A stretch of DNA of 62,713 nt, filler included, from Perkinsus olseni (lineage: Eukaryota): the NCBI GenBank assembly GCA_013115125.1. It is 6 parts of 6 records of this genome, joined end to end, with 100 filler letters (N's around TTAATTAATTAA, not from the genome) between each part and the next. Parts side by side here need not be neighbours in the genome. Positions count along the whole stretch, not along the records: positions 1 to 11,939 come from JABANN010000810.1; 5 more parts are not named here. One strand, given 5' to 3'. Below the pieces are notes generated by a model. The model was not told where the DNA came from and searched no databases. It worked only from the letters and a program-made list of their open reading frames with translations. Shown here piece by piece: positions 1 to 59,753 of this stretch (positions within the stretch are counted from its first letter, which is position 1; each line of letters opens with the position of its first letter). The translations under genes were made by a program, and so were the position numbers.

Positions 1-732
1 TAGAACTTTTTGAGACTGTGCATGTGAGTTGAACTATGTGTAACTTAGACATTGCCCAAGTTTCATCAAAAACAAACGACGCAAATTCGAGAAGGGAATG
101 TGCCCAGTTGCCAGACGCGCGCTAGCTGATCAGCGCAACTAGAAATTTTGCTGTCTCCGCGCACAATTAGGCTGCCTCTACGCGTACCCTATGCATTCGA
201 CCAGTGACTTATCTAACATAGGTCCGATCTTACCAGATTCAAATTGAATCATTCAATATGCATTAACTATTCCGTAAAACTCCAGTACAACGTCTGATAT
301 GATCTAGCAATCGCTTTAGAAATAGTTACAATTTTGGATAGTTACCAATTCGAATTTGCTGTGAGTTCGCATCATTGATGTCGCGTTGAACGCGAATCAT
401 ACAATAGAAACTTCCTGTAGTTTGACAATATGAATAAGTACCTTCAGCGGAAGCATGTCTTCAAGACATTGTCTTGAGTCTGACAATATAAAATTGATTT
501 TACACGCTGGTACAGTGGCATTTCTAGTTTTCATCTTTTTAGTGGGTATTGCGCGTAACTAATACTCAATAATATGAGCTAGAATCTGGGTAGATTGTTT
601 GCGTTCTTGGATAATCTAATACCTTCACAAAATTGTTTCGGGTAGTGTTGTAGTACTTGTCGTTGTGACAATATCAGAGTTTGAAGACAGTTATTTTCGA
701 TTGCTTTTCGATCGTAAGTTTATTTTTCTCCC

Positions 733-3700
733 ATGGTGAAGACTTCTGTTTATGTCCATCGTTCACCATCTAATCGACGGGTCCGTCGAAGAAAGGCATT
801 AGTACGAAATCGCTGTCATATATGTGGTCGATTTTGTGGTCAGCGGTCAGCCGTATGTCAAAGTTGTGAGTTGGGTAATGATCAGAGGAATATGTTGATC
901 ACTAAACGTAAGGTGTTCACGGGGATGGGTTTATCAGAGGTATGTGATTTGTGTGCGCGGCAGTCTACAGAGCATTATCCGATTATCCTAAGACCGGTTC
1001 GTAGAGCTGCCATTCGACAAGGGCGGTATGGAAAACATTTACCTGATCGGCGATCGCGCAACTATCTACAATTCTGTGGTGACTGTTATGAGTATGTAGT
1101 GCATAAAAGGAAATCTTGGCGTTATGGGTGGGCGGCTGTGTTATACACAGTCATATTTGGAACGTTATTTGACCATCGTTGTAAGCAAGATATACTTAAG
1201 TTGATCCCGAATATAATATTGGAGTCTTGGAAATATTGCTTGAATATTGATTTTGAGAGTCCTATACAAGATTTTACCCAACATCTAAAAGATAACCCTT
1301 TGCCGACGAACGATTTGTCGATGGAGAAGTTCATATCATTTGCGGAGGTAAGTAAATTTTGGTGTATGTAATCATTGCATTGCTATTTTCGGATTAACTT
1401 ATAGGTACATGCATTGCCATGTGTATTATGCCCGTTTGGCTGTCACATATCTCCATTAAATGGCGGTTACGGATTTCTCCCATTCACTCATTTATTGAAC
1501 TATGTGGATTCATCAATTCGAGTATTCACTGGTAATGGTCGCCGATTGCAATCCGTACACACCAAGTGGTTACGCGGATGGAGTAATACTCTATTTGGTT
1601 GGAATGTAGTACAAGCTGGGGTTTCATTCCACGATATTTATGGCTTATGTATTCTGACTTGCCGCGATCATTCAGCAGGATGTATGTTTCAGAATATATA
1701 TATGCCTGAGCAGCCTGTGCTTGGTCATGTTGCCCTTTCCGAAGCAGATAATCTTAGTCTCGCCACAATCAAACCACGTGTCATCAAAACTGGTCGGACG
1801 GGGCTTTATTGTAGTTCTTGGTCGTTGTATGCTGCTCGATTCTCCTCTTCGGGAGTTAGTACTTTTACTTTGAGCGATGAAGTACGATGGCGCTCAATCT
1901 GTTCGCGAATGGCTCGGAGCAATGCGTTGGTTATTATGAACAGACCCGATATTCTATCTGGCTTGTATAGAAGAGTGGTACAAGGTCAATTACCTCCGCA
2001 TGTTTTGCGGGATTTGTTGCAAACTTCGACTGGTTGTTCGAAGGAAGAAGAAGAATTATGTTTGACATCAGCTACATTGATTGACTTGGAAGATATTATC
2101 AGACTGAAAGAGTATTCTTCGGTAGATGCGGTATCAGCTTCTTCTTCTGCGGGCACAACCCCACAATTTTTCTACGCGCATAAAGTGGGAATCCATGGGG
2201 CGCGTCCCCTTACTCCAGAATTATGGGGGTTGCCTAGTGATCGGGAGATAGGATACGATCCGCTGAATGTCTTTATTTGGGTATTACTCGTTTTCAATAC
2301 GATTTGTCCCATCATCGCTACAGACCTTCTCAAAGTATCGACCACTTCGTCATGGCAGCAGTTTTGCCGAGTAGCATACAGAAGGATTCTGGATGATCTT
2401 TTCTCGTGTCAATTGTGTAAACTTAATAAAGTTTCACGTAGTGTAAAACGTTTCAAAGTACGACTTAGCAGATGGCTCAGTCATATTGGTTATGACTTTG
2501 GTACCTTATTTCAATTTAATTCTGCACAGGTCCTTCGTACCATTATTCACAATTTCTTCAGAGCATCAGATTCTTCCATAGTGCTGTTCAATTTTGTTAA
2601 TATGTCGGGGTTCTCTGTATTATTGCCCCGACTTCCGCATAATGTCTCGTGGCATATTCTCCTTGATAGTAGTGAAAGATCCAGGTCTGGAGCAGTCTCA
2701 CGTGATGCTGTAACTTCGATTATTGACACTTGCACATCGTGTGGCCTACAAGTTCAAGCTGTGTTCGACTTTCGTAATGTACTATTAGAGCCTTTCGGAT
2801 ACATTTCTCATGGAAAATACCGTCACGGATATTGGGAGTGCTCGTATGGGTGTCATGCGATTAATCGGGATATTACTATTCAAGATGTGCTTGGTCAAAA
2901 ATGTTGGTCGCTTTATTTGCTTACACGAAGGAGTGGTACAGAAGCAGTAAATAAATATTTTGGGTCTTTGATGGGAATCATTGGTGGTCAATTATGTTTT
3001 GTCTGTGGTGTGCATGATGTATTGCTGGTGAAAGAAACTTTCCCGAGTAAGGCCCATTGCTCATATTCTTCATGTGTTGCGTCAGTCAAGCATAAGGCTA
3101 TATTTTCGTGTCCCTATCGAGACTCTTGCGGAGTAGGAATATGTCGGAAAGTGTATGATGCTTTCATCTTATCTGGTGTACCTGGTTTTGCTATCAAGGT
3201 GTATCCTGTACCTAGCGTTGGTTCAAATGGTGGAACGGATATTCCCGTCGTTTGTTCTACTGTTGATGATGGTGATGATGATGAGGACTTTTGTTCGATT
3301 TTGTCGGTTGCTGCTGAATCTGTCGTCGATGATGCTCCGTTTTTTGTCGGTGACCCAGATATCAATGATGAGTATAATTCTCAACATGTAGGCGATCCCT
3401 GTTTACTGACGAGCACAGCTGATGATCCTTGGTTATTCGGTGAAGTCCCCGTAGCAGCTTCGATCTTATTTAATTCAATATGTGGAGTTCTACGTCGGAA
3501 GGGGTATCCAGTAAACGTGCCCCGCTACGCTCAACGTTTCTTTCAAAATATGATGAGTTTATCGAAGAGTCCTGTATGTTTAGCGTACCCCGAGTCGACA
3601 TTGTTCCCGAGTTTATTTTGGTGTGATTATGAAAATGATGCGATAGGGGCAATCCCGGTCTGTTTGCATTCTGAGCGATTCAATCATCAGTCAGGCTTTA

Positions 3701-5124
3701 GCAGTTACCGTGATCACTGTGTGTATCGTCTCCGGGATTGGAGTTCATTGTCGATGGCAGATAGCAGATACTGTCTATACATGTTCGATGTGTGCCTTAA
3801 TGAGATGATGCGTTACTCTACACAAAGTTTGACTTTAAAACGTGGCTGGGAGCATATCTCGGGAGACAGTCACGACGTTAAAATAAATATGAAAGAACAG
3901 TATTTGGCGTTCGATGCAGCCGATTCTCGTAGAAATGTACGAGAACTTTCATCATTAATTGCACAGCAATGCCCTAGGTATTTTATAACGTTGACTTGTA
4001 ATCAAAGAGGAACGCCATGTGTGAGGCTGGTTACAACTATCCGTGAAGGCTACTTGCGTCGTTATCCGGCAGTATCAGAGAAGGATGCGATTGAATCATC
4101 ATGTACACCATATGTCACTACTTGGTATAACTGGGTGTGTTTGTTTTTGGAATATCTTTATCAAGGAAATGATGATATTCTTGGACCAATTACAGGTTAT
4201 TGGGGTAGGTTTGAGTGGCAATCTTGCGAGTCTACTTTGCCACATTTTCACTGTCTGTTGTGGTGTAATGAGCCTATAGAGGTCTCAAAACGACGAATTG
4301 TCTGTAATTTGTCACAGTTCAAATCGTTCAAGGATTCTGTGATCGAGAGAGGTCTTGTTACTAGCAATGCAGAATGGGAAGATGTATGCGAGTCCTTTTC
4401 TCGCTTTCAACGTCATTCTTGTGCAGCATCTAAGGGTAGATGCCAACGATATGGCTCTGATGGTAAATCATACTGTCGAGTGCCGCATTATACACCATCA
4501 CCATCAACAGAGTATTCACCTATTATACGTCGATTGACAGATCAAGAACTGGATGTATTTATATCACTTGGTTGGGCTTCGTATGTTGATGATAATCATT
4601 ATCAACTTCGTCCTGACTTTCAACCGGGCAAGTATAACTATGCAACGTCAGATGATATAAAATGGGTTCCTGTTAATCCATATATATTCACAATATTTAG
4701 ATCAAGTTGTAATGTACTATTGGTGGACTGGGATATGGCATCACGGTATTTGGCATCTTATTGCGGCGGTGCCGAGGAGCATGTTAAAACTAGTTTCCGT
4801 TCGAAGGGTGATAATCTTGTTGACGTTAACATACACAATGTTGAAAACGTCAAGCTTATGCATGGCCAACATCCTAACGCTGCTCGGGTGAAGAGAGGGC
4901 GGAGTGAATTATGTAAGAGAATTGTATCCAAAACTGAGGCTCTATTCTATGTACTCAAGTATCGATATGTACACACAAATGCTAGGTTTTCTCATCCGCA
5001 AACCAGTATGCTTGAAGATAGGCCAGTATGGAAGAAAAGTCGGAAGTTACTGTCACGGTTTGCGTCTGCACGCGGCGAGCCTCCTGTTCAAATACGTGTG
5101 AGGTCGTCGTTGCCTGATATTTAG
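733..5124 (+). CDS. Helitron Rep (HUH endonuclease) with N-terminal Cys-rich/Zn-finger region; exons 733-1347 and 1405-5124
   Basis: A 57-nt intron 1348-1404 (GTAAGT...TTATAG, phase 0) joins ORF 733 in frame to ORF 1414. Rep motif 1 YFITLTCN (~3979), motif 2 FEWQ..LPHFHCLLW (~4210), motif 3 RYLASY (~4744). Multiple CxxC pairs at the N-terminus. Confidence 0.85.
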
Positions 5125-5233
5125 AGAATCATTCGTCATATTCTTATCATGGTTGTTGTGTTAAGAGTCTCATTGTTAGAAGTAACTTCTCATTTCATGA
5201 CGTCTTCTTTATTTAAATAGTTATATTATTATC

Positions 5234-8188
5234 ATGACCCCGGAGTATGCCGACTGTAATAGATCCTTTCGGCAATTTTCTTCGTCGCAACAATGCTTAA
5301 TGGAGGAAGTTGAACGATATCCTTACGTCAACGACAAGGTAACTTCATTCAGTTTGAGGCCTCCGGAACTACTATTCATACCATATTTACGATTATACTT
5401 GTCATGGTTCATCATTTGCAATATTGTTATACCTGCAGCAGACGAGGAAGGTGTGATGCGAAAGTATGCTGGGATTCATCGGCTAGAAGATGCGTACTGG
5501 TTTGATGGTGCGAGTCGAATTGTTAAAGTTAGATATTACGCTATACCAGCTTTACATGATTTTTCGCTCAGCCTTCTACGTGGAGAACATGGTGTTGTTC
5601 ACCCGAAGTTATCAACATATGTTGAGCGTGTTATAATTCCCTTATATAACAACCCTCATTCATTCCCACAACTTGTCGACTTTACAAATACCGAGCCTTT
5701 GGTGGTTGTATCGCCATTAACGTTGCCACTCTCTGGGGCTAGATGGTTGGTGCACTTGGTATTATTTTATGGTCGTTATACTACGGAGCTGGAATTATTT
5801 ACGTCCAAGTCATTACTTGAGTCTTTCCAAAAAGCTGGATTATACGATCCAGATAAAGCGGAGTTATCATATAAGGAGCTATTATCTTCATGGGGAGTGA
5901 GAGAGCTGCGATGTCTTCCTGGTTCTCATAAATCTTTTTGTCGGAATTTATGTGTTGGGAAGTATGTGTTGGAAAGATTTTTTCTGCTTAATCCGGGCGA
6001 GATTGTTTATGTGGCATCGCCGCTGGTTATATTACGTCAACTTCAAAGTGCACATTCTGTATCACTTAAAAAACGCGTTATGGATAGTCGTTACCTTTTC
6101 GTGGATACCATTGGCAAGTTGAACCTTCAAAATGTACCATCATCCGAACAGCTACTTCAAGCTGAATATGATTCTCCGATTAGTTGGACTCCGTCGATAG
6201 TCCCGGCAGATGGCCAGAGCTCTGCTTCGGTTGAGGAGCAAACTGTCGTGCTGAACGTGGGCATCAATAAGATCAAATCTTTTATCAGAGGCAACCAGCC
6301 GTTTATTCCGTTCTTGATAATGGCCGGAGGACCAGGGAATGGAAAAACCACATTGCTGCTGCTTATGGGCAGCTTTGGTCGTGCGCAAGGCCTTGAGATT
6401 CAGCCAGTTGCTCTGAGTAGTGAACGATCATTATGTATTGGAGGGAGCCATATACATAAATTATTCGCCGTAAGCGTACACAAAGGCTCTACATCTCTCT
6501 CCGCTTCACAAGCTGCTTATTATGCTATCAATCGGTTACAGCGAGATCCTATTGGTTTGGCATATTTACTGACAATAGATGTTATACTTTTAGATGAGTG
6601 TGGGCTTGTAGATGAGTCGCTTTTTACGACGATGAGTGAAATACTGTGCTCCTTGCGACACACACGGATTCCCTTTGGTGGATGCCAAGTTTTGATGACT
6701 GGTGATCCTCACCAATTGAGTCAAATACACGGAAACTCACTGTGGAGCTCTGTCTACACTCATTCACTATTCGACATATATGTGTTACAGCAGCCGGTCC
6801 GTTGTGGAAAAGACCCTATACTACAAAAATGTATCCAAATCTTACGAAAAGATTATCTTAGTATTACTCACGATGATTATGTATCTTTAGCAAATTCTAT
6901 TATCAGCAATTGCCGATTGCGAAGATCAATAGAGGATGTCCGCCAAGAGAGCGGTTACACTACTTTTGAAGTATACAGCAAACGAATATCTGAGCGGTTA
7001 GCTATGAAGTCCTTTGCTGAGAATCTTAAGCTGAGAGCAGATGCGGGAGAACCCATATTTGTGAGTACAAGTGTGGATGAGGTTAACGAGAGTGGTGTAA
7101 GCTGTGCTTGGAGGACTTCCACCGATAATTTAAGTACCAAATTGAATAAACAGTCGTTAGACGCTCACAAATTGACTTTGGTCAGCGGAGTGGTCTTGAG
7201 ATTTACTCGCAATGGAATTGCTGATGGTATCAAGTACTCCCAGGGGCAATTATGTATCTGTGTATCATTACCTCGTGATGATGACGATCGGTTGGAAGTA
7301 CTCATACCACCACCTGGTTATCGATCTCTACAAAACATCAATCTGACGACTCCTCCTCCAAATTGGAAGCGAACTAACTTGTATCGAGAGTATGGATATG
7401 ATATTTCTGTTGGCCTATTATTAATGAGACGTAAACAATATCCGGTTGTGAATCATGTCAGTTGTACGTTACATCGAGCTATAGGTTTAACGCTTGATTC
7501 GGTTACGAGTCGGATTGCCTGTCCTACTGGTGCTTCATCAGATCGCAACTATTGTTTGTGGGAGAAACAACAGCTCCTGGTGTTATTATCAAGAGTTGCG
7601 AGTCTGGACAGGATTACGCTGATTAATACTGAAGTGGAAATCCGTGATACGGTCAAATATTTATTGGACAAAAGAAGTGCTCATGAGAGTTACATCAATC
7701 ATGTTATGGCAGCTGTATCGAAAGTTACTACGGAGCCTCCTCCCGGTAGGATCATTATTCAGAGCCTCAATTTTAGACCTCGACGAGTTTCAGAAGCTTA
7801 TGTGGGTGAGGGAGGTTGTGTCTATATGTTGATCAGCACTCAAAATTTAAACTATAGTTATGTTGGCCAGACAACTCAACTGTTGGAGCGTGTGGATACT
7901 CATAATCGTGGATTATCCGAACATGCGAGCCAGGTGACCGCATTGTTTCATTTGCGTCCATGGTTTGTAGCAGGAGTGATAGTCGGAATTCCTTTCAAGT
8001 CAGGCTTCAAAGACTTTAGCCGACTCATCAGAGAGCGTCTTGAGGCGGCATGGCATGCACTCATTATACCAACTGATGTTCCAGCTGTTGTTCTGTCGAA
8101 AGGGAAGTCTCTTATTACTTTATTCAATTCCGACTATCCTTCGTTGACGTTCATTGATGCCATATCATTGTGTTTAACAGACGTGTAA
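5234..8188 (+). CDS. PIF1-family (SF1B) helicase with C-terminal GIY-YIG nuclease domain; possibly spliced to the upstream Rep
   Basis: Walker A GGPGNGKT, Walker B LLDECGLV, PFGGCQVLMTGDPHQL, RKQYPV, TLHRAIGLTL and LLSRV motifs. C-terminal CVYMLIS..YVGQT..RVDTHN..RPW..ERLE matches the GIY-YIG pattern. Confidence 0.88.
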   Translation: MTPEYADCNRSFRQFSSSQQCLMEEVERYPYVNDKVTSFSLRPPELLFIPYLRLYLSWFIICNIVIPAADEEGVMRKYAGIHRLEDAYWFDGASRIVKVRYYAIPALHDFSLSLLRGEHGVVHPKLSTYVERVIIPLYNNPHSFPQLVDFTNTEPLVVVSPLTLPLSGARWLVHLVLFYGRYTTELELFTSKSLLESFQKAGLYDPDKAELSYKELLSSWGVRELRCLPGSHKSFCRNLCVGKYVLERFFLLNPGEIVYVASPLVILRQLQSAHSVSLKKRVMDSRYLFVDTIGKLNLQNVPSSEQLLQAEYDSPISWTPSIVPADGQSSASVEEQTVVLNVGINKIKSFIRGNQPFIPFLIMAGGPGNGKTTLLLLMGSFGRAQGLEIQPVALSSERSLCIGGSHIHKLFAVSVHKGSTSLSASQAAYYAINRLQRDPIGLAYLLTIDVILLDECGLVDESLFTTMSEILCSLRHTRIPFGGCQVLMTGDPHQLSQIHGNSLWSSVYTHSLFDIYVLQQPVRCGKDPILQKCIQILRKDYLSITHDDYVSLANSIISNCRLRRSIEDVRQESGYTTFEVYSKRISERLAMKSFAENLKLRADAGEPIFVSTSVDEVNESGVSCAWRTSTDNLSTKLNKQSLDAHKLTLVSGVVLRFTRNGIADGIKYSQGQLCICVSLPRDDDDRLEVLIPPPGYRSLQNINLTTPPPNWKRTNLYREYGYDISVGLLLMRRKQYPVVNHVSCTLHRAIGLTLDSVTSRIACPTGASSDRNYCLWEKQQLLVLLSRVASLDRITLINTEVEIRDTVKYLLDKRSAHESYINHVMAAVSKVTTEPPPGRIIIQSLNFRPRRVSEAYVGEGGCVYMLISTQNLNYSYVGQTTQLLERVDTHNRGLSEHASQVTALFHLRPWFVAGVIVGIPFKSGFKDFSRLIRERLEAAWHALIIPTDVPAVVLSKGKSLITLFNSDYPSLTFIDAISLCLTDV

Positions 8189-8665
8189 CAATATATGACA
8201 TCTTTCTAGTTCTTACTAATAAACACTTTCTTCTGTGAATCCTCTGTAGAGTTCATCAATTTTTCTATTGCTAAAGAATATGAGGGGGAATAATAAGTAA
8301 CAATTCGTAGTGTTGTCGAATCTGTGCAATCAACAGTTATGAGTTGTTATTCAACTTCAAACATTTGATTATTCTAAACTCTATAATCACAGCACATCAA
8401 TGATGTGACATCATATCTATCACAATATCACTTTATCATAAACTCTAATCTGTCGGTTCAAACACAAGAGTAGAATACAACTTGTGTACAGTGCTTCCTG
8501 TTGAGAGCAATTACTGGTCGGTTAATTGGGCGTGCGCTTTTTCTCTTTATAGCTTAATGTTGTTTGCTTATGAACATATGATGTACTCCAATATTCGTTT
8601 TAATAACTGGTTGGGGATATATTCGATCAGGTTATCAACCTTGATTCAATCTCTGGTTGACTCCT

Positions 8666-9445
8666 ATGTCTACAGCCCCCCTGTGTTTCACACTTTCGAG
8701 AGTCAACAAGGCTTCGCAAATAGATGAGTGTCTTATGCCACTGAGACCCTATCGATCTGCTGTGGATGCAGACTTTTGCAAGAGTGATCTCCTGGCGTCG
8801 AGTTCCTTGTCTATTGCCCGTTCACCAAAGCGAGCACAGTTATCTATCCCTAATGGAGGGGAAGTATTTGATAAGTTGAGTGGTACTCCTTTTGCTTTGA
8901 GCAATAAGTACGTTGATCGGCCTCATATCTATCCGAGCTCGACTTCTAATGCCGATGATGACAATGCATCTAGAGAGCGACATGTGTTCGACGAAGCTTA
9001 TGTTCGTGAATTGCAAAAGTTCTATACTTTTGGTAGTGCGACTAGTCAAAGTAATAATTGCCTAATCGATAGTATTTGTAAACTTGTACAGTGGATGGAT
9101 ATTCTTCATCCAGTAGAGTTTCCAGTTGATATGCAATTGTATGCTAGAATCCGCCAAAGCCTTGTACTCAACAATGATGCTTCAGAGAACGGTTTCTTGG
9201 AACATTATCGTCATGCTATTCCTATTGTCGATTTTCTCTGGAATGAATCTCGACTATATGGCCCTCGGCAACCAATCGCCATTACGGCACACAGTGATAG
9301 AGACGTTGCTCTTACTCATGGACTATCACGTAATCAGAATCTCTCAGATCTTCAAGGTGAGATGATAAAGGAGATTGCAAGTGTTCTGACATTGCATTTA
9401 TATAATTATCATGGTTTACATTATATTCCACTCTTTCGTAAGTAG
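8666..9445 (+). CDS. OTU-like cysteine protease (putative), element cargo
   Basis: SNNCLIDSI resembles the OTU catalytic-Cys motif (DGNCLFxA). C-terminal HYIPL resembles the catalytic-His motif. OTU domains are known Helitron cargo. Start codon uncertain. Confidence 0.55.
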   Translation: MSTAPLCFTLSRVNKASQIDECLMPLRPYRSAVDADFCKSDLLASSSLSIARSPKRAQLSIPNGGEVFDKLSGTPFALSNKYVDRPHIYPSSTSNADDDNASRERHVFDEAYVRELQKFYTFGSATSQSNNCLIDSICKLVQWMDILHPVEFPVDMQLYARIRQSLVLNNDASENGFLEHYRHAIPIVDFLWNESRLYGPRQPIAITAHSDRDVALTHGLSRNQNLSDLQGEMIKEIASVLTLHLYNYHGLHYIPLFRK

Positions 9446-9459
9446 TTGTTAACAAATGA

Positions 9460-9496
9460 GTTCCCGGCGTCCGTAGGACGCCCGGGAACGTTCTAG
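9460..9496 (+). terminator. Helitron-type 3' terminal hairpin and CTAG
   Basis: GTTCCCGG-CGTCC-gta-GGACG-c-CCGGGAAC (13-bp stem, 1 bulge), then GTT-CTAG and a T. Confidence 0.8.
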
Positions 9497-10035
9497 TCAG
9501 TGATCACTATTCGCACTTTCATCTAATTTCAACTTCAACATACAAGAGTGAATGAGTAGAGATGCTAGGCCGTATGCGGTCGTGTCTGTTGGTTATATAG
9601 AGATTATGATTAACTTATAGGAAGGTATTATCTTCAATCAGATTTTGATTCGGAAACTTGCCCTCCTCAATAAGCTTTTCCTTACTTTTCGCAAGTTTGA
9701 TTAACTAGCAACTCATCATTTCCGACTTACTCCCTACTTGAGATGAAAATAATGTAGGACATGAGGTTGTGCTACGGATTATAAAAATTTCCTCCTTTTC
9801 TGATACAATACTCTTATCGATTAACGGAATATTATGTGGAGTGTAACTGCCATGGTGTAGCGTTTATCACAGATTAAATGATATGCTTTCACAACTTCTC
9901 TTGTACTATTCGATATGACAAATGGGATTTTGATTATTTTGATTGTCAAGACAAACCATCCATGTCGAGTTTTGTATTTGACCAGGAAGTGATGTGTTCA
10001 AAGTGTAGTAGTTCTGCTCTATTATTTTCCGTCTT

Positions 10036-11230
10036 ATGACTAAGTTAGATCAATCCTTAATTACGGAGTTGAAGACTCTTATGAAGAAGAAGGATATTTA
10101 TCGTTTGGTTAGCTTGGATGACGTGCTAGCTGGTCAGTCTGGGTATACTATATTACAATGTAGAATTTTGAAAGTGAAAGAGTGTGAAGAGTTAAATAGA
10201 AATTGGACTTATGTATCATCAACCAATAATCGGCAAAAACTATACAAATCTGGAGGTTATCATAAATTTATATTTCTGGGGTGCTGTCGTAGCAGTCGCG
10301 TATTTGTGGTACGAATCAAATCGAGAGCTGAAGCAAATATGATATTACAACGCGAAAGCTTCTTGTCTATTGGTTCGTGGGCGGCCTTACTGGAAGGAAA
10401 TTTCGAGAACGAAAAGTTGGGGAAGCGTGAAACGTTTGTGCCGATTCTGAGTACTAGTTATCCTCTGATGGAGCTCGACGACATACAAGATTATGTCATG
10501 CCTTCATCGAAGGCGGGGTTTCCATTATTAAGAAGTGCATCATTGGCCGAAGGAAGTATGTCTATGTTTTGGTTCAGTGTCAAGAAGATTGATGTCTACC
10601 GTGCCAGATATCTTCGTAACACCTGTCCCAACGTCTTTTGCGATAGAACCGTATCCTTGGGGTACGTTGGCTCCTCAACTCGTACTGTATGTAAGGTGTG
10701 TAGTTCTTCGATGCACTCAGAAGCGAAGTATTCGATCGCAGTTGATATGGGATTCTCCTCTGATGGTGATGTGGTCCGTACAACTCTGAGTGGACGTAAG
10801 CTCTGTGGCATATTCATTGATAAAACTTTGGTTGATCTATCCTGGGAAGAGTTTTCGTCTAAGGTCAATAACAAACTCGAGAAACTAGTCGTTGCTGCAC
10901 GTGATATAACTGAGATTATCAATGAATGTCCTACCAGCTATTGGATGGTATGTGGGTGGGTTATGTATGGACAAACTGTCAACTCATCTGGGGAAATTAT
11001 TGTTTCCAACTTCAAGAAAGCGCACGTTATTGATTTGATCCCATGCATGACTCCGGAAACAAGGGAAATAGTTGAGTCAAAAATGATTAAAGGTAAGTCA
11101 CCATATAATGTGGTTCTTATGGAATCATCGTAATTTTTCTCTAATAGGTGATATGGTGACCTCCAGTACCCCAAATCATGTCCCCGATGGATCTGATGCT
11201 GACAATGGTGGTCCCAGCGATGCACAGTAA
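10036..11230 (+). CDS. RPA70-like OB-fold ssDNA-binding protein with C4 zinc ribbon (putative); exons 10036-11092 and 11148-11230
   Basis: YLRNTCPNVFCDR...CKVC...KYSIAVD resembles the RPA70 C-terminal OB-fold (YxxCxxxC...CxxC..Y). A 55-nt intron 11093-11147 (GTAAGT...AATAG) extends the ORF to TAA at 11230. Confidence 0.5.
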
Positions 11231-11911
11231 CACGCGGTCGGCCTTATTATGGTAAAAACACTGTATACGCCCCTGTTTGCCTTATTTTGGCCCAGATATT
11301 AGGATAAAGACATTTCTGGAGTCCATCTTTGCCTCGTTCAAGCTGAAGCACTTAACCTTCAGTGTTGATAAAATGGATTGTTATCGATTTCTAAAAAACC
11401 TTTTGTTCGTATGGTTCATGATAGCCGTAATACAGATTACCCCTCAAATCACCTTACTTTATTCCCGTAGTCAGATGTCATACATCAATCGCATCATTTG
11501 AAATGACTCGTTTCATTATTATGGCCATTCTACTGTGTTGAGTTCTGAAAGTACGATTACCTTTATTATATGATCGACTCTGTCGTACTTTTCATTGCTT
11601 TATCACTAATAATGATTCATCATATATCGTTTAGACACGGTTCCCGATATATTTTCCATACTTTCGAATATGAAACTTGTATATTTCCGGATCAATTGGG
11701 TCGACAATCTCGTGTCGCTTACGATGGAACCCCTTCCGACAAATACCCGCTCCTGCATCAATATCCTCGTATTATCTATTCATCATTTTTAATAAATTTT
11801 AACACAGATATATGCTCTACTAACTCATATCTTCGATACGTGAGTTTCGTCCTCGCCGGTATCCTTGGTGAACGGAGGGCGAGTTCCATGCGGGGTACCT
11901 CACAAATGTTA

Positions 11912-11939
11912 GCCCGAGCGGGAAGGGCCCCGCGAGGGC
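11912..11939 (+). terminator. Second GC-rich hairpin, candidate alternative Helitron terminus (contig ends here)
   Basis: GCCC-ga-GCGGG-aagggc-CCCGC-ga-GGGC. It is preceded by ACAAATG, as is the 9460 hairpin. Confidence 0.45.
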
Positions 11940-12039
11940 NNNNNNNNNNNNNNNNNNNNNNNNNNNNNNNNNNNNNNNNNNNNTTAATTAATTAANNNNN
12001 NNNNNNNNNNNNNNNNNNNNNNNNNNNNNNNNNNNNNNN
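11940..12039. other. Artificial contig linker
   Basis: N44-TTAATTAATTAA-N44, which puts stops in all six frames. Confidence 0.99.
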
Positions 12040-12131
12040 TCTCCAAGTTTGGAAAGGAATACTTTCCCTCCACTTGGACTTGGAAAAGTGGGCACTTTAA
12101 TTGGCTCCTGGTATTCTCGGCTATTGATAGT

Positions 12132-12698
12132 ATGGATGGCAATTACCCTTGCCTACCTATGGATAACTATCAGACATGTCTGAGCTGGGAGTTCGTTGAA
12201 GTGGCGTGTGGCCTTTTGGATCGAGTTTCTCCTGAGATGGCTGACGTGTTATTCCTTCAAGGATACAACCACAGACTGGGCACAAGTGGTCTCAACATGA
12301 TGGAGATTGTGAAGGCGACTGATGTCCTCTATCCTGGTTTCTCTGGTATTCTACCCGCTCTCCCCGAACAAGACCAGTGGGAGTATCCTACTCATCACGA
12401 CGGGCAGCCCATAAGAGGTCCCGCTAGAGTCTGCAGCGCCTTGGTTTGCGAGATGCTTCGTGCTGGGGGTGTCTTCGGTAACCATGACGTCTCATGTACG
12501 GAGTTTACTCCTTGGGATATCTACAGTATGGATGTTTTCACTTCACCGACTTACCAGCTAAAGGGTGACTACGCTATTGATCTCACCAAGCCCGAACCTC
12601 TTCGCCTCGGTCAGAAGAGTATAACAAACTACATGGCAGAAACTTGCAGGACACAGATTACTGACGAGTCATACTACGAGCGAGCTCCGCATTGTTAG
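12132..12698 (+). CDS. 3' part of a conserved hypothetical eukaryotic protein (possible permuted papain-like fold); 5' truncated by contig start
   Basis: Open frame with WEYP..DG..RVCSALVCEMLRAGGVFG..CTEFTPWDIY, which resembles a catalytic CSxLV motif. Confidence 0.5.
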   Translation: MDGNYPCLPMDNYQTCLSWEFVEVACGLLDRVSPEMADVLFLQGYNHRLGTSGLNMMEIVKATDVLYPGFSGILPALPEQDQWEYPTHHDGQPIRGPARVCSALVCEMLRAGGVFGNHDVSCTEFTPWDIYSMDVFTSPTYQLKGDYAIDLTKPEPLRLGQKSITNYMAETCRTQITDESYYERAPHC

Positions 12699-14382
12699 TC
12701 CCGTCCTCGCCGTACTAATAGATAAGTTCCTATATTTCAGCTTCAGCCTGAAACTTTTCAGTTGCGTCTTGATTGTGGCTTGCAGGAGCGATGCAGCCTC
12801 CTGGCATTATGTCCACGGTATCCGCAGACATCGTCGGCATTTGTATACTACCGCCTATGGCGGCTAAATTGTTTGCCGTGTCGGTTAGAGTTGCGTCGCA
12901 GTAATCGCACCCACACTGGGCAGATTCTGGATTGTGATGGGGTTTCAAAGGAATTAATATTCAGTTGTGACTCATTCGGAAATATGATAACGACGCCCCC
13001 ATCGGCTGTTCATGCAATACCTAAGAAGTTGTGCCCCCAGGGCACTGACCTTCAGGAGCTGGAGTTCAGCCCCCGCGTAGCAGCAAGGTGGGGGAACATT
13101 CTTTCGCTCATTCCGATTTCATTCCCAGTAACGGTACCCAAACTCCAAACCAAACAAGGCCTGATATGCTGACAACCCATAAATTATACTTCTATCTCAG
13201 CTTGATCTGCATCAGACTCGCTGCGTTTACGTGCCGAAACATTTCTGAAGGAACGAGCAAGAATGGTGACATAAGCGATGGATGGCGTCTCGAAGAGGTG
13301 GCCTCACTTGGGTGCTTTCCCCGCATTGCTGAGCATCGATAGGACATACCAGAAAACACCTAAGAGCGAAGTTCTCACTCACGTAGCAGCAACGACCTGA
13401 AGAGGAGACTTACCGAGCAACCCCCCTATGCCACAACCTAGAATGATTTGCGATGTCGAGTGGTCATTGAGTTGAACTCTGCTCCACGGAACAGGGAGAA
13501 AAATGAGAACGATGATCAATACGTTCCCCAATGCAACCCGCACCTGCACGATGACTTCATCTACACCACGTCAGATCCTTATGTTTACCTCTCGAAAATT
13601 AGTAGTAATGTGGACGTCAAGGGTTCTCCACCTCAATGCTAGGGCCCATATTTCCCTGCCACCGCAATGAAGCAGAAGAAGCGTCATGATGGCCATAGAC
13701 ATAAGAGCATGTCCAGACGGCATTCCACAACTAGAACAGTGGATGTACAGGACCTCGAGTACTGAAACCTACGTGATGTGGCATGATCCTCTCGGACGCT
13801 CCATCTCTGCAAGTCTCTTCGCAATATTTTGCACGGCCCACGACGAGAAAAAAAGTATCATAAACTAAAAGTGAACCTTTGGCCGTTGCAGTATCTGTTA
13901 CTGGGAGCTTACTTCAAACCATAACTTGCTACGCTTCAATAATGTTGCACACGCAGCGAAGATGACGAAAGCGAACAAGACGCTAGAATAAACTGAAATG
14001 AGGTGCTGGACCGCGGTGTCCGAGCAAGCTCGATATCACATGCAGCAACATAATCCGCGAGTACCGGACTGCTCGGCCATGTGAAGGACGAAAATGGTAG
14101 CGTCACAACCTTACCGTAGGGGCAACTATTGGGGCCTGAATCACATCAGTGCGCTCCAGGTGAGACGTGTGAGGAGAGCTCACCTAGCACAATCGCCCAA
14201 TCGGGGACACATGCTACTGGACTTATGTTTGCTGGGGATTCGCGCACGGTAAAAGATTGATAAGTAATTAAAAGTCAATTAACTGTGAAGGAATTATCAC
14301 CATCTTAGAGCGACTCCCATCCCGCGAGTCTGTTGAACCCCCATCTCGCAGAACCCCAGTAACAACGCAAGACCGGGGAACA

Positions 14383-23949: not shown

Positions 23950-24049
23950 NNNNNNNNNNNNNNNNNNNNNNNNNNNNNNNNNNNNNNNNNNNNTTAATTA
24001 ATTAANNNNNNNNNNNNNNNNNNNNNNNNNNNNNNNNNNNNNNNNNNNN
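23950..24049. other. Artificial contig linker
   Basis: N44-TTAATTAATTAA-N44. Confidence 0.99.
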
Positions 24050-35872: not shown

Positions 35873-35972
35873 NNNNNNNNNNNNNNNNNNNNNNNNNNNN
35901 NNNNNNNNNNNNNNNNTTAATTAATTAANNNNNNNNNNNNNNNNNNNNNNNNNNNNNNNNNNNNNNNNNNNN
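35873..35972. other. Artificial contig linker
   Basis: N44-TTAATTAATTAA-N44. Confidence 0.99.
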
Positions 35973-40763: not shown

Positions 40764-42621
40764 GACTCCGGCGTACTTCGAATATCTGGGCATATCCGAG
40801 AATATGATTACAAGAAATTCTGATGTTATTGATATTGAGTTCAACTTGATGTTGAACAGACTTGATAAAGATTCTCATTGAGTTTTTCCCAGTGACTACT
40901 CAAAGTGACTTCGGGGCGTACGGCGTTCGACCGAACGAGCACCTAAGAGTCCTACATGTCATTCCGTACGACTTGTACGGAACAATAGCGTAGTCGCGAG
41001 TATCAAAATCTCGCAGTGTGCAAGTCGCGAGACCTCTCACGAAGTACCGAGCGTGGTGAAGTGATCGCGAGCCCGTATTCGCTTCCTTACGTCGTATCAC
41101 ACGCCTTTTTTGCCTCCCAAGACTTTCTTAGAAGGCCACGCAAGTTCTTCGGCGTCGGCAGGTCTGCCGAAGGACGTCAAGTCCTGTGGACGCCTCTGTG
41201 GGCTCTACTGTCACCTACGTGGGGTCCGTTTTTGCAGCCTTGGAAGCATTAATCGACGAGTGTGTACCAGGCTCCCGCCGGGATCCCAGCTGGAACTCGA
41301 ACACCCCCTGTTTTGTCCTCCGCAAGGTTGCGTTGCTCCTTTCGGCGATCGCGTTGGCTCATCTCCAACCGCAGCGACGGCGCGTCAAGACAGTCAGGCG
41401 GGGGGGATAAAAAACCCCACCGAAAAAACAAAACGAGTGGTGAATTAACCCCCGGGAGAGGACACACCACACCCCCCCACCCCCGGGAAGATTGAGAGGG
41501 AGAAAAANNNNNNNNNNTTGGGGCGTGCGGGGTGCCTCATCCCCACCCGCCGCGCGGGCGCGCAAAGACCGCCCGCGGGGTTTACTCCCCACCTCGTCTA
41601 CACACCCCGGTTGGCTATTAAACCCCGGCTTGCTTCCCCCAGCTCTTCCCCAGCAGAAGGTGTTATTATGCGACATCTATCCTAGGTGAAACTCGATGTC
41701 CTCAGGGGCAGGTACCATGCTGGGAAATTCGGATGAGCATGAATCGGCTGTGAGGTGCGCAACCGCTTTTGTATTGTCTCGCCATCGTCTTGGCTCCGTA
41801 CGAGGCAGATTTCATTAGGACTGGAGGAGCTGGCTGAGCTCTCGTCAATGAAAGCATTGCCGAACGTGAGTATCTATCATCAGTGGGTCTCTCTTGATGA
41901 ATGCCGCCAGACCGGCAGGGAAATGTCCTTTGCTGGGACGATAACGGCCTATTGAAGTTGAATAATGCAACCCCTGAGAGAGGAGGTGTGGCGCCAACTC
42001 GTTAACAGCGATCTTGTTCAATTCAGAAAGAGTTCTCGGAAGGAGACGATGCGACTTCGTCAATGAGTCGCCCAGTACGAGTGTCATTGAATCTAGGAGG
42101 AGAATATACTCAACCTTCGTCCCCTGACCGAGATCACGGAAAGGCGTCGGGCAGGACTTCGACTAATCGGAGATGGCCGTGTAGGTTGCCACCTGCGCGT
42201 GCCGCAACATGAGCATGCACAGGGCGACGTGACGCTTTTACGAGCTCCAGAACAACCTCAACCCCAAGTTCACTGCGTGAACGCGAACGCGTCGATGTTG
42301 TGTTGTAAAATAACGAAAACATATGGGAACAAACCGATCCTGGAACATCATCACTCCAGCCGTGACGGGACAGCCACCACTGCAACAACCACAAGTTGGC
42401 GTGGTCGACCATAATAACGGAACGGTTTGTGGGAACATTATCAGCGATCGAAGAAATGTGAGATCGAGCACAGGAAAAATACACCTAGAATTTCGTCTTC
42501 CGCCAAGTACAAAGCAAGAATGCTCTGCAACTTCGTTTACAGTACTCTATACCACTGAAGAGCGCTCGAGGCGCAGCGCCGGACACCGGAGAGCTTCAGA
42601 CCTGGCACTTCGGAGGAGGAC

Positions 42622-47772: not shown

Positions 47773-47872
47773 NNNNNNNNNNNNNNNNNNNNNNNNNNNN
47801 NNNNNNNNNNNNNNNNTTAATTAATTAANNNNNNNNNNNNNNNNNNNNNNNNNNNNNNNNNNNNNNNNNNNN
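47773..47872. other. Artificial contig linker
   Basis: N44-TTAATTAATTAA-N44. Confidence 0.99.
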
Positions 47873-59653: not shown

Positions 59654-59753
59654 NNNNNNNNNNNNNNNNNNNNNNNNNNNNNNNNNNNNNNNNNNNNTTA
59701 ATTAATTAANNNNNNNNNNNNNNNNNNNNNNNNNNNNNNNNNNNNNNNNNNNN
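59654..59753. other. Artificial contig linker
   Basis: N44-TTAATTAATTAA-N44. Confidence 0.99.

Follow-up and report, generated by a model that had tools for sequence, protein, structure and literature searches.

A Helitron-like transposon from Perkinsus with an SLX1-type GIY-YIG nuclease at the end of its helicase

Does the rolling-circle element in this stretch of Perkinsus olseni DNA (GCA_013115125.1) carry a genuine GIY-YIG nuclease at the end of its helicase, and if so does the fusion represent an isolated capture or a distinct transposon lineage? The window, the whole stretch of 62,713 nucleotides that was analysed, consists of several unrelated contigs joined by N...TTAATTAATTAA...N spacers, and only the first contig (1-11939) is relevant here. 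A preliminary description, made from the sequence alone, had placed an intact-looking Helitron-like element at 733-9496, with three HUH Rep motifs, a full PIF1 motif set and a C-terminal GIY-YIG nuclease in the helicase ORF. That observation was confirmed. The contig carries an intact, transcribed Helitron-like unit whose helicase ends in an SLX1-like GIY-YIG domain, and the same layout recurs in many distant eukaryotic relatives, so that it marks a little-described transposon lineage.

We first examined the coding content of the contig. All of the motifs named in the preliminary description are present at or near the positions it gave, and the long ORFs 1405-5124 and 5201-8188 contain no internal stops, as it had claimed. 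Pfam searches identified Helitron_like_N in the Rep (E 3.8e-9, 37.5 bits against a cut-off of 28.9), PIF1 in the helicase (E 7.5e-10), and GIY-YIG, PF01541, at the end of the helicase ORF (E 3.7e-5, 24.4 bits against a cut-off of 22.6). A profile of the family also matched PIF1 structures in the PDB at about 1e-25. One detail required correction, as the spacer between CVYMLIS and YVGQT is 7 residues rather than the 6 originally counted. The features of the contig are listed in the table.

Features of the first contig of the window, with the observations that support each (X6 and X13 are two RNA runs from different studies)
Position	Strand	Feature	Observations
1-183	.	High-copy repeat flanking the unit on the left; not part of the element as far as can be told	Short contigs of the DNA run at depth 4275-8176 cover it, against 83.9 for the unitig 148-11893; other copies diverge after 183
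717-718	+	Spliced-leader acceptor AG, mRNA 1 (Rep)	RNA contigs in X6 and X13 start here, preceded by non-genomic CTTGGCTC, which matches the 3' end of the Perkinsus L-type SL ACCGTAGCCATCTTGGCTCAAG
733-1347	+	Gene 1 exon 1: Cys-rich N-terminus of Rep (CxxC motifs at 814-840 and 1072-1095)	ORF; splice joint in two RNA runs; collinear with the N-termini of fused relatives
1348-1404	+	57-nt GT..AG cis-intron	Joint 1345>1403 (cut +2) in X6 (depth 352) and X13; joins the two ORFs in frame
1405-5124	+	Gene 1 exon 2: Rep body with HUH domain; motif 1 YFITLTCN 3979-4002, HUH (PHFHCLLW) 4240-4263, two-tyrosine (YxxxY) motif RYLASYCGG 4744-4770; stop TAG 5122-5124; spliced product 1444 aa	Helitron_like_N; 57 of 60 relatives longer than 2100 aa match it, up to its last residues
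5219-5220	+	Spliced-leader acceptor AG, mRNA 2 (helicase-nuclease)	An X6 RNA contig starts at 5219, preceded by adapter plus GCTCA; no cis-splice joint listed across 5124-5220
5234-8188	+	Gene 2: 984-aa PIF1-family helicase with C-terminal nuclease; Walker A GGPGNGKT 6326-6349, Walker B LLDECG 6587-6610	Pfam PIF1 and GIY-YIG; 47% identical over its full length to the relative P0001; PDB profile hits to PIF1, Helraiser and SLX1
7814-8185	+	SLX1-type GIY-YIG nuclease domain; GCVYMLIS 7814-7837, YVGQT 7859-7873, RVDTHNRG 7889-7912, RPWF 7955-7966, RLEAAWH 8036-8056; Y875, Y887, R897, H901, N902, E948 (numbered in the stop-to-stop ORF 5201-8188)	PF01541 above its cut-off; SLX1 profile hit; AlphaFold and Foldseek; conservation
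8629-8630	+	Spliced-leader acceptor AG, mRNA 3	An X13 RNA contig 8629-9950 is preceded by CTTGGCTCA
8666-9445	+	Gene 3: 259-aa protein of unknown family; OTU-like cysteine protease a weak lead only (NNCLIDSI 9053-9076, HGLHYIPL 9410-9433)	Intact ORF, transcribed; no Pfam or PDB sequence hit; best Atlas score 0.87, OTU only at rank 15
9460-9496	+	GC-rich hairpin (9460-9489), then GTT and CTAG (9493-9496), then T; canonical Helitron-3'-end-like motif of uncertain role	DNA fold -14.9 kcal/mol, z -4.19, 0 of 200 shuffles as stable; RNA contigs run through it to about 9848-9950
10007-10008	+	Spliced-leader acceptor AG, mRNA 4	An X6 RNA contig is preceded by adapter plus CTTGGCTCA
10036-11229	+	Gene 4: exons 10036-11092 and 11148-11229, 55-nt GT..AG intron 11093-11147; product about 378 aa; RPA/OB-fold-like ssDNA-binding protein a lead (CX5C...CX2C 10624-10707)	Intron joint in X6 and X13; spliced C-terminus matches the P. 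olseni protein P0160; Atlas neighbours, scores 0.92-0.94, are OB-fold families (POT1, CTC1, MEIOB/REPA_OB_2, CDC24_OB); no structure model behind the lead
11864-11939	.	High-copy dispersed repeat at the right end of the contig	Depth up to 12717 against 83.9; shared by two other long unitigs (depth 83.7 and 79.4)

We probed the identity of the C-terminal domain by sequence profile and by predicted structure; the lack of a GIY-YIG fold match had been named in advance as a result that would overturn the observation. A profile built from 31 family C-termini matched yeast SLX1 at E 1.9e-16, with SLX1 proteins spanning 1.9e-16 to 1.3e-12 and bacterial UPF0213 proteins at 2.8e-7, while UvrC (E 0.27) and T4 EndoII (0.07) scored poorly. 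An AlphaFold model of the domain (pLDDT 88.6) was compared with the PDB using Foldseek, and the 11 best matches are all SLX1 or its plant homologue At-HIGLE (TMq 0.48-0.61), while the next hits have E above 0.3. In an alignment of 103 sequences the GIY Tyr is kept in 103, the YIG Tyr in 97, Gly in 100, Arg in 96, His in 100, Asn in 98, and Glu in 97. Together with the conservation across more than 100 relatives, the profile and fold matches are far more than chance. The domain lacks the RING/PHD zinc finger of SLX1 in every case, and the SLX4 partner that activates cellular SLX1 is absent as well, so its substrate preference may differ.

A search for the same Rep-PIF1-GIY-YIG order in other eukaryotes, also proposed at the outset, showed that the architecture is not a one-off. 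The library search returned 281 cluster representatives at E<1e-30. Of 152 relatives examined, 133 carry the domain, and 18 of the other 19 are C-terminally truncated predictions that end within 48 residues of the helicase match; the remaining one (P0014) continues 406 residues past the helicase with no GIY-YIG match. The list of 150 relatives was ranked with a profile that included the nuclease columns and is therefore somewhat biased towards domain-bearing proteins. Among 19 full-length relatives, Pfam found GIY-YIG in 19 of 19 and neither Exo_endo_phos nor DUF6570 in any, and the HUH, YxxxY, Walker A and B, and GIY-YIG residues are invariant in those 19. The Rep is only weakly Helitron-like, as Helitron_like_N matches 4 of these 19 and the Rep protein alone gave no PDB hit. 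Named members come from Perkinsus olseni, P. chesapeaki, and the tunicate Styela clava, plus a cluster with fragments from the glomeromycete fungus Entrophospora. Some members sit on contigs up to 1.4 Mb, and some clusters hold 6-16 near-identical members on different contigs. Several members are already labelled 'GIY-YIG superfamily endonuclease' by automatic annotation.

Transcription of the unit was evaluated with RNA contigs from X6 and X13, which are 99% or more identical to the DNA. These showed two cis-introns and four acceptor sites for the Perkinsus spliced leader, the sequence of which was taken from PMC3101222 and PMC9399869. The unit therefore makes four mRNAs, with Rep and helicase-nuclease as separate proteins, contrary to the single gene of fused relatives. 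In these relatives gene 1 and gene 2 are collinear and abutting, for example in P0029, where gene 1 ends at residue 1378 and gene 2 starts at 1378. The window, P0001, and the P. chesapeaki helicase-only protein form one clade (support 1.0 and 0.81).

The limits of 733 and 9496 given for the element in the preliminary description are not supported. Position 733 is only the ATG of the first gene rather than the 5' end of the element, while 9496 lies inside a transcribed 3' UTR with a fourth co-expressed gene beyond it. The only Helitron-like 3' signal (hairpin plus CTAG, 9460-9496) is internal to the transcribed unit, no terminal inverted repeats were found, and the termini of the element could not be defined.

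The interpretation offered in the preliminary description, of a distinct rolling-circle lineage using GIY-YIG as its accessory nuclease, was supported. We are fairly confident that the contig carries an intact, expressed autonomous member of a widespread but barely described lineage of eukaryotic Helitron-like transposons, in which the ancestral transposase comprises a Cys-rich N-terminus, HUH Rep, PIF1 helicase, and SLX1-type GIY-YIG nuclease, the last occupying the C-terminal position where Helentrons carry an AP endonuclease. In this copy, whose host is Perkinsus-like, Rep and helicase-nuclease are separate polypeptides that presumably reassemble. The domains, the SLX1-like character of the nuclease, its conservation and recurrence, the expression, and the split of the two genes were directly observed. 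The role of the nuclease, however, is inferred from the established activities of SLX1 on 5' flaps, forks, and junctions (PDB entries 6sei and 7cq4) and from a position analogous to the Helentron endonuclease; no nuclease, helicase, or transposition activity was tested. In this view Rep would nick and covalently carry the transferred strand, the 5'-3' helicase would peel that strand off, and the tethered nuclease would cut a branched or double-stranded structure that the ssDNA-only HUH domain cannot cut. Candidates are a flap, fork, or loop at the target or donor, or the untransferred target strand, cut to prime second-strand synthesis. This would play the part assumed for the AP endonuclease of Helentrons and fits the earlier suggestion of flap or branched intermediates, although we hold this class of role only tentatively, at somewhat less than even likelihood.

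We considered whether the four genes could instead be a domesticated, Helitron-derived cluster that now serves the protist, for example in DNA repair or replication, and no longer transposes. In the source DNA run this copy sits on one unitig at the same depth (83.9) as two unrelated long unitigs (83.7 and 79.4), which gives no sign of recent multiplication in this genome. Host-type cis-introns are present and all four genes are trans-spliced, the stretch is found in 20 runs from 11 studies, gene 4 is about 95% identical over the aligned parts to P0160, and all ORFs are intact. However, introns and spliced-leader trans-splicing are expected of any gene expressed in this host, transposon genes included. 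The whole contig has about 0.40 GC against about 0.50 for the other contigs of the assembly, the unit is embedded between high-copy repeats, and relatives elsewhere are multi-copy. The nearest named P. olseni helicase fragment is only 72% identical and that of P. chesapeaki about 28%, a pattern that looks like several diverged transposon lineages rather than one conserved orthologue. We consider domestication unlikely.

Two further readings appear very unlikely. Helitrons frequently capture host gene fragments (PMC11417382) and the nearest solved relatives of the domain are cellular SLX1 proteins, so that an incidental, recent capture of an SLX1 fragment with no role in transposition could be envisaged. 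This is contradicted by the shared position of the domain in 133 of 152 relatives of only about 25-47% identity, by its near-invariant catalytic residues, and by its lack of the SLX1 zinc finger in every case; a capture must have happened once, but at the base of the lineage, and the domain has been kept under selection since. An episomal or viral rolling-circle replicon was suggested by the small contigs on which many relatives lie (7-19 kb, many of only 9-14 kb; this contig is 11.9 kb). Yet no terminal overlap indicative of a circle was found, both ends of the contig run into host high-copy repeats that other unitigs share, and relatives also lie on contigs of 120 kb to 1.4 Mb. A search of the IMG/VR viral contigs found 0 relatives, and no capsid-like gene was found.

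Whether this architecture had already been catalogued as a named Helitron group was another point raised beforehand, and it is not wholly unseen. The only printed report that we found of a GIY-YIG domain in a Helitron-like element is a passing mention of HelenSM92 of Sphagnum magellanicum (HELIANO, NAR 2024; PMC11417382), described as a captured domain in one HLE2 family with TIRs and TT target sites; whether that domain is fused to the helicase, and whether that family belongs to the present clade, is shown only in Supplementary Figure S8 and was not assessed here. Helentron/HLE2 elements likewise combine a HUH Rep and PIF1 helicase with an accessory nuclease at the C-terminus of the helicase, and accessory OTU and RPA genes sit in the same element (PMC11417382). 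The nuclease here is instead an SLX1-type GIY-YIG rather than Exo_endo_phos, the HLE2 marker DUF6570 was not found in the window or in 19 relatives, and Rep and helicase are split in this copy. The canonical Helitron (HLE1) Helraiser (PDB 7lcc) shares the HUH and two-tyrosine Rep motifs and a PIF1 helicase, which the family profile matched at 1.4e-23 and 6.8e-24, as well as a hairpin plus CTAG followed by T, present here at 9460-9497. No C-terminal nuclease is known in Helraiser, and only its helicase region was matched in our searches. The Rep is too diverged for a sequence hit, and the present proteins are much longer, with about 1400 aa ahead of the helicase. Cellular SLX1 and UPF0213 proteins belong to the same GIY-YIG subfamily and their catalytic residues align, but here the domain is fused to a helicase inside a mobile element. 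Penelope-like elements also use GIY-YIG as a C-terminal endonuclease module, fused to reverse transcriptase, but are retroelements with no Rep and no helicase, and the best matches of the present domain are SLX1 and not other GIY-YIG branches.

The finding lies on the first contig, contig 1, which has a GC content of 0.39-0.43, uniform along its length, while most of the other contigs are at 0.46-0.55. The 62.7-kb window is not one locus but a chain of separate contigs. The five spacers, N runs around TTAATTAATTAA with stops in all six frames, join contigs of about 11.8-11.9 kb, and adjacency in the window says nothing about adjacency in the genome. Pfam identified Helitron_like_N in the longest open reading frame with E 3.8e-9, above its cut-off. 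In the following reading frame it identified PIF1 with E 7.5e-10 and, at residues 872-924, GIY-YIG (PF01541) with E 3.7e-5 and 24.4 bits against a cut-off of 22.6. The motifs listed for Rep, helicase and nuclease in the preliminary description are all present, and that observation is confirmed, except that the spacer between the GIY and YIG motifs is 7 residues and not the 6 that had been stated.

Positions of the features in the window
Feature	Position	Strand	Remark
Contig 1	1-11939		
Left-end repeat of contig 1	1-183		High copy
Spliced-leader acceptor AG	717-718		
Stop-to-stop ORF	718-1371	+	
Gene 1 (Rep), first exon	733-1347		Cys-rich N-terminal module
First cis-intron	1348-1404		GT..AG
Stop-to-stop ORF, joined in frame to the first exon	1405-5124	+	1239 aa; spliced product 1444 aa
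GAT/GGT-rich run	3255-3291		Acidic stretch DDGDDDED
Rep motif 1	3979-4002		YFITLTCN
Rep HUH motif	4240-4263		PHFHCLLW
Rep two-tyrosine motif	4744-4770		RYLASYCGG
Stop codon of gene 1	5122-5124		TAG
Stop-to-stop ORF	5201-8188	+	995 aa
Spliced-leader acceptor AG	5219-5220		
Start codon of gene 2 (helicase-nuclease)	5234		ATG; 984 aa
Walker A	6326-6349		
Walker B	6587-6610		
GIY motif	7814-7837		GCVYMLIS
YIG motif	7859-7873		YVGQT
Nuclease motif	7889-7912		RVDTHNRG
Nuclease motif	7955-7966		RPWF
Nuclease motif	8036-8056		RLEAAWH
Spliced-leader acceptor AG	8629-8630		
Stop-to-stop ORF	8645-9445	+	
Gene 3	8666-9445		259 aa
Hairpin	9460-9489		-14.9 kcal/mol
Hairpin-CTAG-T	9460-9497		
Spliced-leader acceptor AG	10007-10008		
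Stop-to-stop ORF	10012-11133	+	
Gene 4	10036-11092 plus 11148-11229		About 378 aa
Second cis-intron	11093-11147		GT..AG
Right-end repeat of contig 1	11864-11939		High copy
Spacers between contigs	11940-12039, 23950-24049, 35873-35972, 47773-47872, 59654-59753		
Tandem repeat at the end of contig 3	35800-35872		Unit about 27 nt
Internal gap in one contig	41508-41517		10 bases
Last contig piece	59754-62713		GC about 0.17

We probed the nature of the nuclease by sequence and by predicted structure. The last 140 residues of the window protein were aligned with 30 C-terminal stretches of relatives, and the resulting profile hits SLX1 of several yeasts at E 1.9e-16 to 1.3e-14, the Arabidopsis SLX1 homologue at 1.3e-12, and two bacterial UPF0213 proteins at 2.8e-7 and 1.7e-5. 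Other GIY-YIG branches are at noise level, with T4 EndoII at 0.07 and UvrC at 0.27. An AlphaFold2 model built on the same alignment reached pLDDT 88.6 and pTM 0.84, and a Foldseek search of the PDB placed Slx1-Slx4 entries or At-HIGLE at all of ranks 1-11, with probability 1.00, TMq 0.48-0.61 and E 2.4e-5 to 1.6e-3, whereas from rank 12 onward E is above 0.3. The absence of a GIY-YIG fold match had been set out in advance as the result that would overturn the assignment, and the fold match was obtained. The residues Y875, Y887, R897, H901, N902 and E948 (numbered in the stop-to-stop ORF 5201-8188) are present and align to SLX1. The C-terminal RING/PHD zinc finger that binds SLX4 in SLX1 is absent, as the protein ends about 45 residues after the catalytic Glu and SLX1 chains are matched only over residues of about 8-110.

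To examine how widespread the layout is, we first used a word-indexed search, which found one near relative, P0001, a protein of 986 aa that is 47% identical end to end and carries Pfam PIF1 and GIY-YIG. An exhaustive HMMER search of 1.84 billion cluster representatives with the two-sequence profile then gave 4736 hits at E<=1e-3, 826 at 1e-10 and 281 at 1e-30, of which the best 150 were analysed. Many of these are 2200-2900 aa long with the match at their C-terminal 900-1000 residues. Of 152 proteins (the best 150 plus P0001 and a second protein, P0002), 102 match the window's nuclease segment by single-sequence phmmer and 133 match a family profile at E<=1e-3. The ranking profile included the nuclease columns, which favors domain-bearing proteins to some degree, although the helicase still contributes most of the 230-580 bits. 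Of the 19 proteins that do not match, 18 end within 48 residues of the helicase match and so are truncated predictions, while one, P0014 (1299 aa), runs on for 406 residues without a GIY-YIG match and could be a frameshifted prediction or a genuine loss or replacement. In an alignment of 103 sequences, the GIY Tyr is conserved in 103, Ser in 101, the YIG Tyr in 97, Gly in 100, Arg in 96, His in 100, Asn in 98, Pro in 102, Glu in 97 and Trp in 94.

Pfam analysis of 19 full-length relatives gave GIY-YIG in 19, PIF1 in 13 and Helitron_like_N in only 4, and in these 19 sequences the HxH, YxxxY, Walker A and Walker B residues and the GIY-YIG catalytic residues are invariant columns. The helicase assignment is further supported by a profile that hits PIF1 structures at about 1e-25 and Helraiser at 1.4e-23. 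The AP endonuclease (Exo_endo_phos) that follows the helicase in Helentron/HLE2 elements was found neither in the window proteins nor among the 9 families detected in the 19 relatives, and GIY-YIG is there instead. DUF6570, the marker upstream of Rep in HLE2 according to HELIANO (PMC11417382), gave no hit in the window proteins at E<=0.1 to 10 and was found in 0 of 19 relatives at E<=0.001. The Cys-rich N-terminal module (several CxxC pairs) and about 700 further residues ahead of the Rep domain are shared across the family but match no known family; with Pfam at E<=10 the first exon gave only weak zinc-ribbon hits (double zinc ribbon, E 0.088). The acidic stretch encoded by the GAT/GGT-rich run lies in the non-conserved middle region of Rep and was skipped as a repeat when reads were placed on the contig. 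A PDB sequence search with the Rep ORF returned nothing.

Named members of the family come from Perkinsus olseni (KAF4743870.1, a 368-aa fragment 72% identical to the window), Perkinsus chesapeaki (KAF4650828.1, 947 aa) and Styela clava (XP_039257388.1, 2532 aa), together with a cluster that also holds Entrophospora fragments. Three representatives and one further cluster member are named 'predicted GIY-YIG superfamily endonuclease' by JGI. Some members lie on contigs of 120 kb to 1.4 Mb, and one cluster has 6 and another 16 members at 90% identity or more on different contigs, as is seen for a transposon family. In a FastTree of 112 helicase-nuclease regions (868 columns) the window groups with P0001 (support 1.0), and these with the P. 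chesapeaki protein (0.81); all three are helicase-only proteins of 947-986 aa. A search of the viral contigs of IMG/VR returned 0 relatives. A search of metagenome contigs with a family alignment returned 49 loci, of which, by the query residues matched, only L001 covers the C-terminal helicase plus nuclease (residues 1676-2339). The other 48 match within the helicase region only, none past residue 2182, many on long or gut-metagenome contigs, and we took them, without individual inspection, for generic helicases pulled in by the Walker A pattern. L001 (1-4407) is a decayed, frame-broken partial copy in which one ORF (1868-2605) still scores PF01541 at E 5.1e-8 and a 509-aa open-ended ORF downstream (2880-4406) has no Pfam family.

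We next asked how the genes are expressed. The stretch occurs in 20 runs from 11 studies, and four of these runs were compared with contig 1. RNA-derived contigs came from X6, a run that is labelled as a guess but that carries splice joints and leader sequence, and from X13, a metatranscriptome from another study, while no reads of the raw RNA run X24 were placed, so that it offers no test. Both sets of contigs are 99% or more identical to the DNA and show two GT..AG cis-introns and four 5' ends at which non-genomic CTTGGCTC(A), or GCTCA, precedes a genomic AG. This tag is the 3' end of the Perkinsus L-type spliced leader ACCGTAGCCATCTTGGCTCAAG, which differs from the dinoflagellate leader in that the latter has T at the position of the first C (PMC3101222, PMC9399869). 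Together with the nearest named homologues, this points to a Perkinsus-type host. The unit therefore makes four mRNAs, for Rep, for the helicase-nuclease, for the gene 3 protein and for the gene 4 protein, and the spliced C-terminus of the last matches the P. olseni protein P0160.

Rep and helicase are fused in one RepHel polypeptide in Helitron-like elements, but not in this copy, in which a stop codon, a spliced-leader acceptor and a new ATG separate the two. No cis-joint across 5124-5220 appears in the RNA contigs, and the TAG is present in RNA contig 4067-5134. In fused relatives the two proteins abut with no gap; in P0029, for example, gene 1 ends at residue 1378 and gene 2 starts at 1378. 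Of 60 relatives longer than 2100 aa, 57 match gene 1 and all 60 match gene 2, collinearly in those inspected. In this sublineage, then, the fusion that HELIANO calls common to all autonomous Helitrons (PMC11417382) has been broken into two cistrons.

In the source DNA run, one unitig spans 148-11893 at depth 83.9, and two other long unitigs that share its right-end repeat have depths 83.7 and 79.4, whereas the contig ends have depths of about 4000-12700, 50-150 times that of the unique part. This copy therefore looks single-copy, although depth is not a copy number, and sits between high-copy repeats; set beside the multi-member clusters of relatives, this leaves the question of its own mobility undecided. 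At the left end, other copies continue after 183 with a sequence resembling 150-175, suggesting a tandem or satellite unit, and at the right end a 1-base insertion variant occurs behind 11883. Rfam gave 0 hits at E<=1 on contig 1, so the end repeats are not a known RNA gene.

Helitron-like elements end either in a 5' TC and a 3' hairpin-CTRR at a site between A and T, or in short TIRs at a site between T and T, with no target-site duplication. The 3' end proposed in the preliminary description, at 9496, is a genuine strong hairpin (z -4.19, 0 of 200 shuffles as stable) followed by GTT-CTAG and T, like a canonical Helitron end. However, RNA contigs run through it to about 9848-9950, and it is followed by gene 4, which has similar RNA-contig depth in both runs and similarly low GC (0.34-0.46). 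No terminal inverted or direct repeats stand out on the contig. With no second copy by which to define the ends, these observations do not decide between a terminus at 9496, in which case gene 4 is a neighbor or the product of end-bypass, and a hairpin that is an internal signal.

The two accessory genes have only tentative assignments. For gene 4, the Atlas neighbors at 0.92-0.94 are OB-fold ssDNA-binding families (POT1, CTC1, MEIOB/REPA_OB_2, CDC24_OB), and the protein has a CX5C...CX2C motif; RPA-like genes are typical Helitron cargo (PMC11417382). For gene 3, an OTU-like Cys motif and His motif were read by eye, with only weak Atlas support (0.87, with OTU at rank 15). PDB sequence searches and Pfam at E<=10 found nothing for either gene, and an AlphaFold model of gene 4 from a two-sequence alignment reached a pLDDT of only 35.4 and was not used for a fold search. 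The RPA-like and OTU-like readings are therefore leads only.

The analysis demonstrates that all three catalytic modules are intact here and conserved across the family and that the genes are transcribed and processed, whereas what the nuclease does is inferred. HUH nucleases act on single-stranded DNA, PIF1 helicases move 5'-3', and SLX1 cuts 5' flaps, forks and junctions, as the titles of the matching PDB entries reflect. In our view the helicase-tethered nuclease may cut a branched or double-stranded intermediate that Rep cannot, candidates being the untransferred target strand, to prime second-strand synthesis, or a flap or loop left after strand transfer, and this would be analogous to the AP endonuclease at the same position in Helentrons. 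We hold this class of role only tentatively, at somewhat less than even likelihood; structure-specific cleavage was not assayed. An alternative is a donor-side role, in loading the helicase or trimming the displaced strand, and our data do not separate the two. The interpretation proposed beforehand, that a distinct rolling-circle lineage may use GIY-YIG as its accessory nuclease, is supported, with the nuclease's role as an inference.

The element works like a Helitron-like element and has both its Rep and its helicase features, but lacks the two Helentron/HLE2 markers that were examined and, in this copy only, the RepHel fusion. Whether the architecture was already catalogued as a named group had also been raised as a condition against novelty. 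In literature searches on GIY-YIG with Helitrons, Helentrons or Pif1 rolling-circle elements, and on Helitrons in Perkinsus, the only link is one sentence in HELIANO and its preprint (PMC11417382), describing a 'captured' GIY-YIG in the Sphagnum HLE2 family HelenSM92, with the detail in Supplementary Figure S8, which was not examined. A catalogue entry is not excluded, as older subscription reviews, Repbase and Dfam were not covered, and the family was not placed relative to HLE1 and HLE2 reference transposases. In the four other papers examined, GIY-YIG refers to Penelope-like elements, Terminons or a Mariner-associated protein. We consider this a real, widespread and essentially undescribed architecture among Helitron-like elements, with the added surprise of a split transposase that is spliced-leader trans-spliced.

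How Helitrons deal with double-stranded and branched DNA, in target opening, second-strand synthesis and resolution of the inserted strand, is unsettled. The role of the Helentron AP endonuclease has never been shown. HELIANO says of the added domains generally that their role in transposition is yet to be studied (PMC11417382). This lineage independently fixed a different nuclease at the same position, from a family whose cellular members cut flaps, forks and junctions, which points to a general need for such an activity and gives a second, tractable enzyme with which to test it. As the Pfam Rep model matched so few of the relatives, which may explain why the group is little noticed, a widespread transposon group is probably under-annotated in protist, fungal and animal genomes. 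The Perkinsus copy is a natural case of a split Rep and helicase and shows a transposon using host spliced-leader trans-splicing to express several proteins. A bolder reading, possible but less likely than not, is that these elements are a third major, ancient lineage of eukaryotic rolling-circle transposons alongside Helitron/HLE1 and Helentron/HLE2. The lineage would be defined by an ancestral SLX1-type GIY-YIG nuclease fused to the helicase, with a Rep so diverged that standard Helitron models mostly miss it. In this view the nuclease would be required for transposition, to cut the branched or double-stranded intermediates that a HUH domain cannot. In perkinsids the lineage would have adapted to the host's spliced-leader trans-splicing, would have broken the supposedly obligatory RepHel fusion into two proteins expressed from a four-gene unit, and would still be active.

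Elsewhere in the window, the last contig piece is extremely AT-rich and even under code 4 has no ORF over 70 aa; it may be organellar or satellite DNA and was not identified. Contig 3 ends in a short tandem repeat (...CCACGACCACAACTAAGGCTGCTGTTT...), which probably explains why the assembly broke there.
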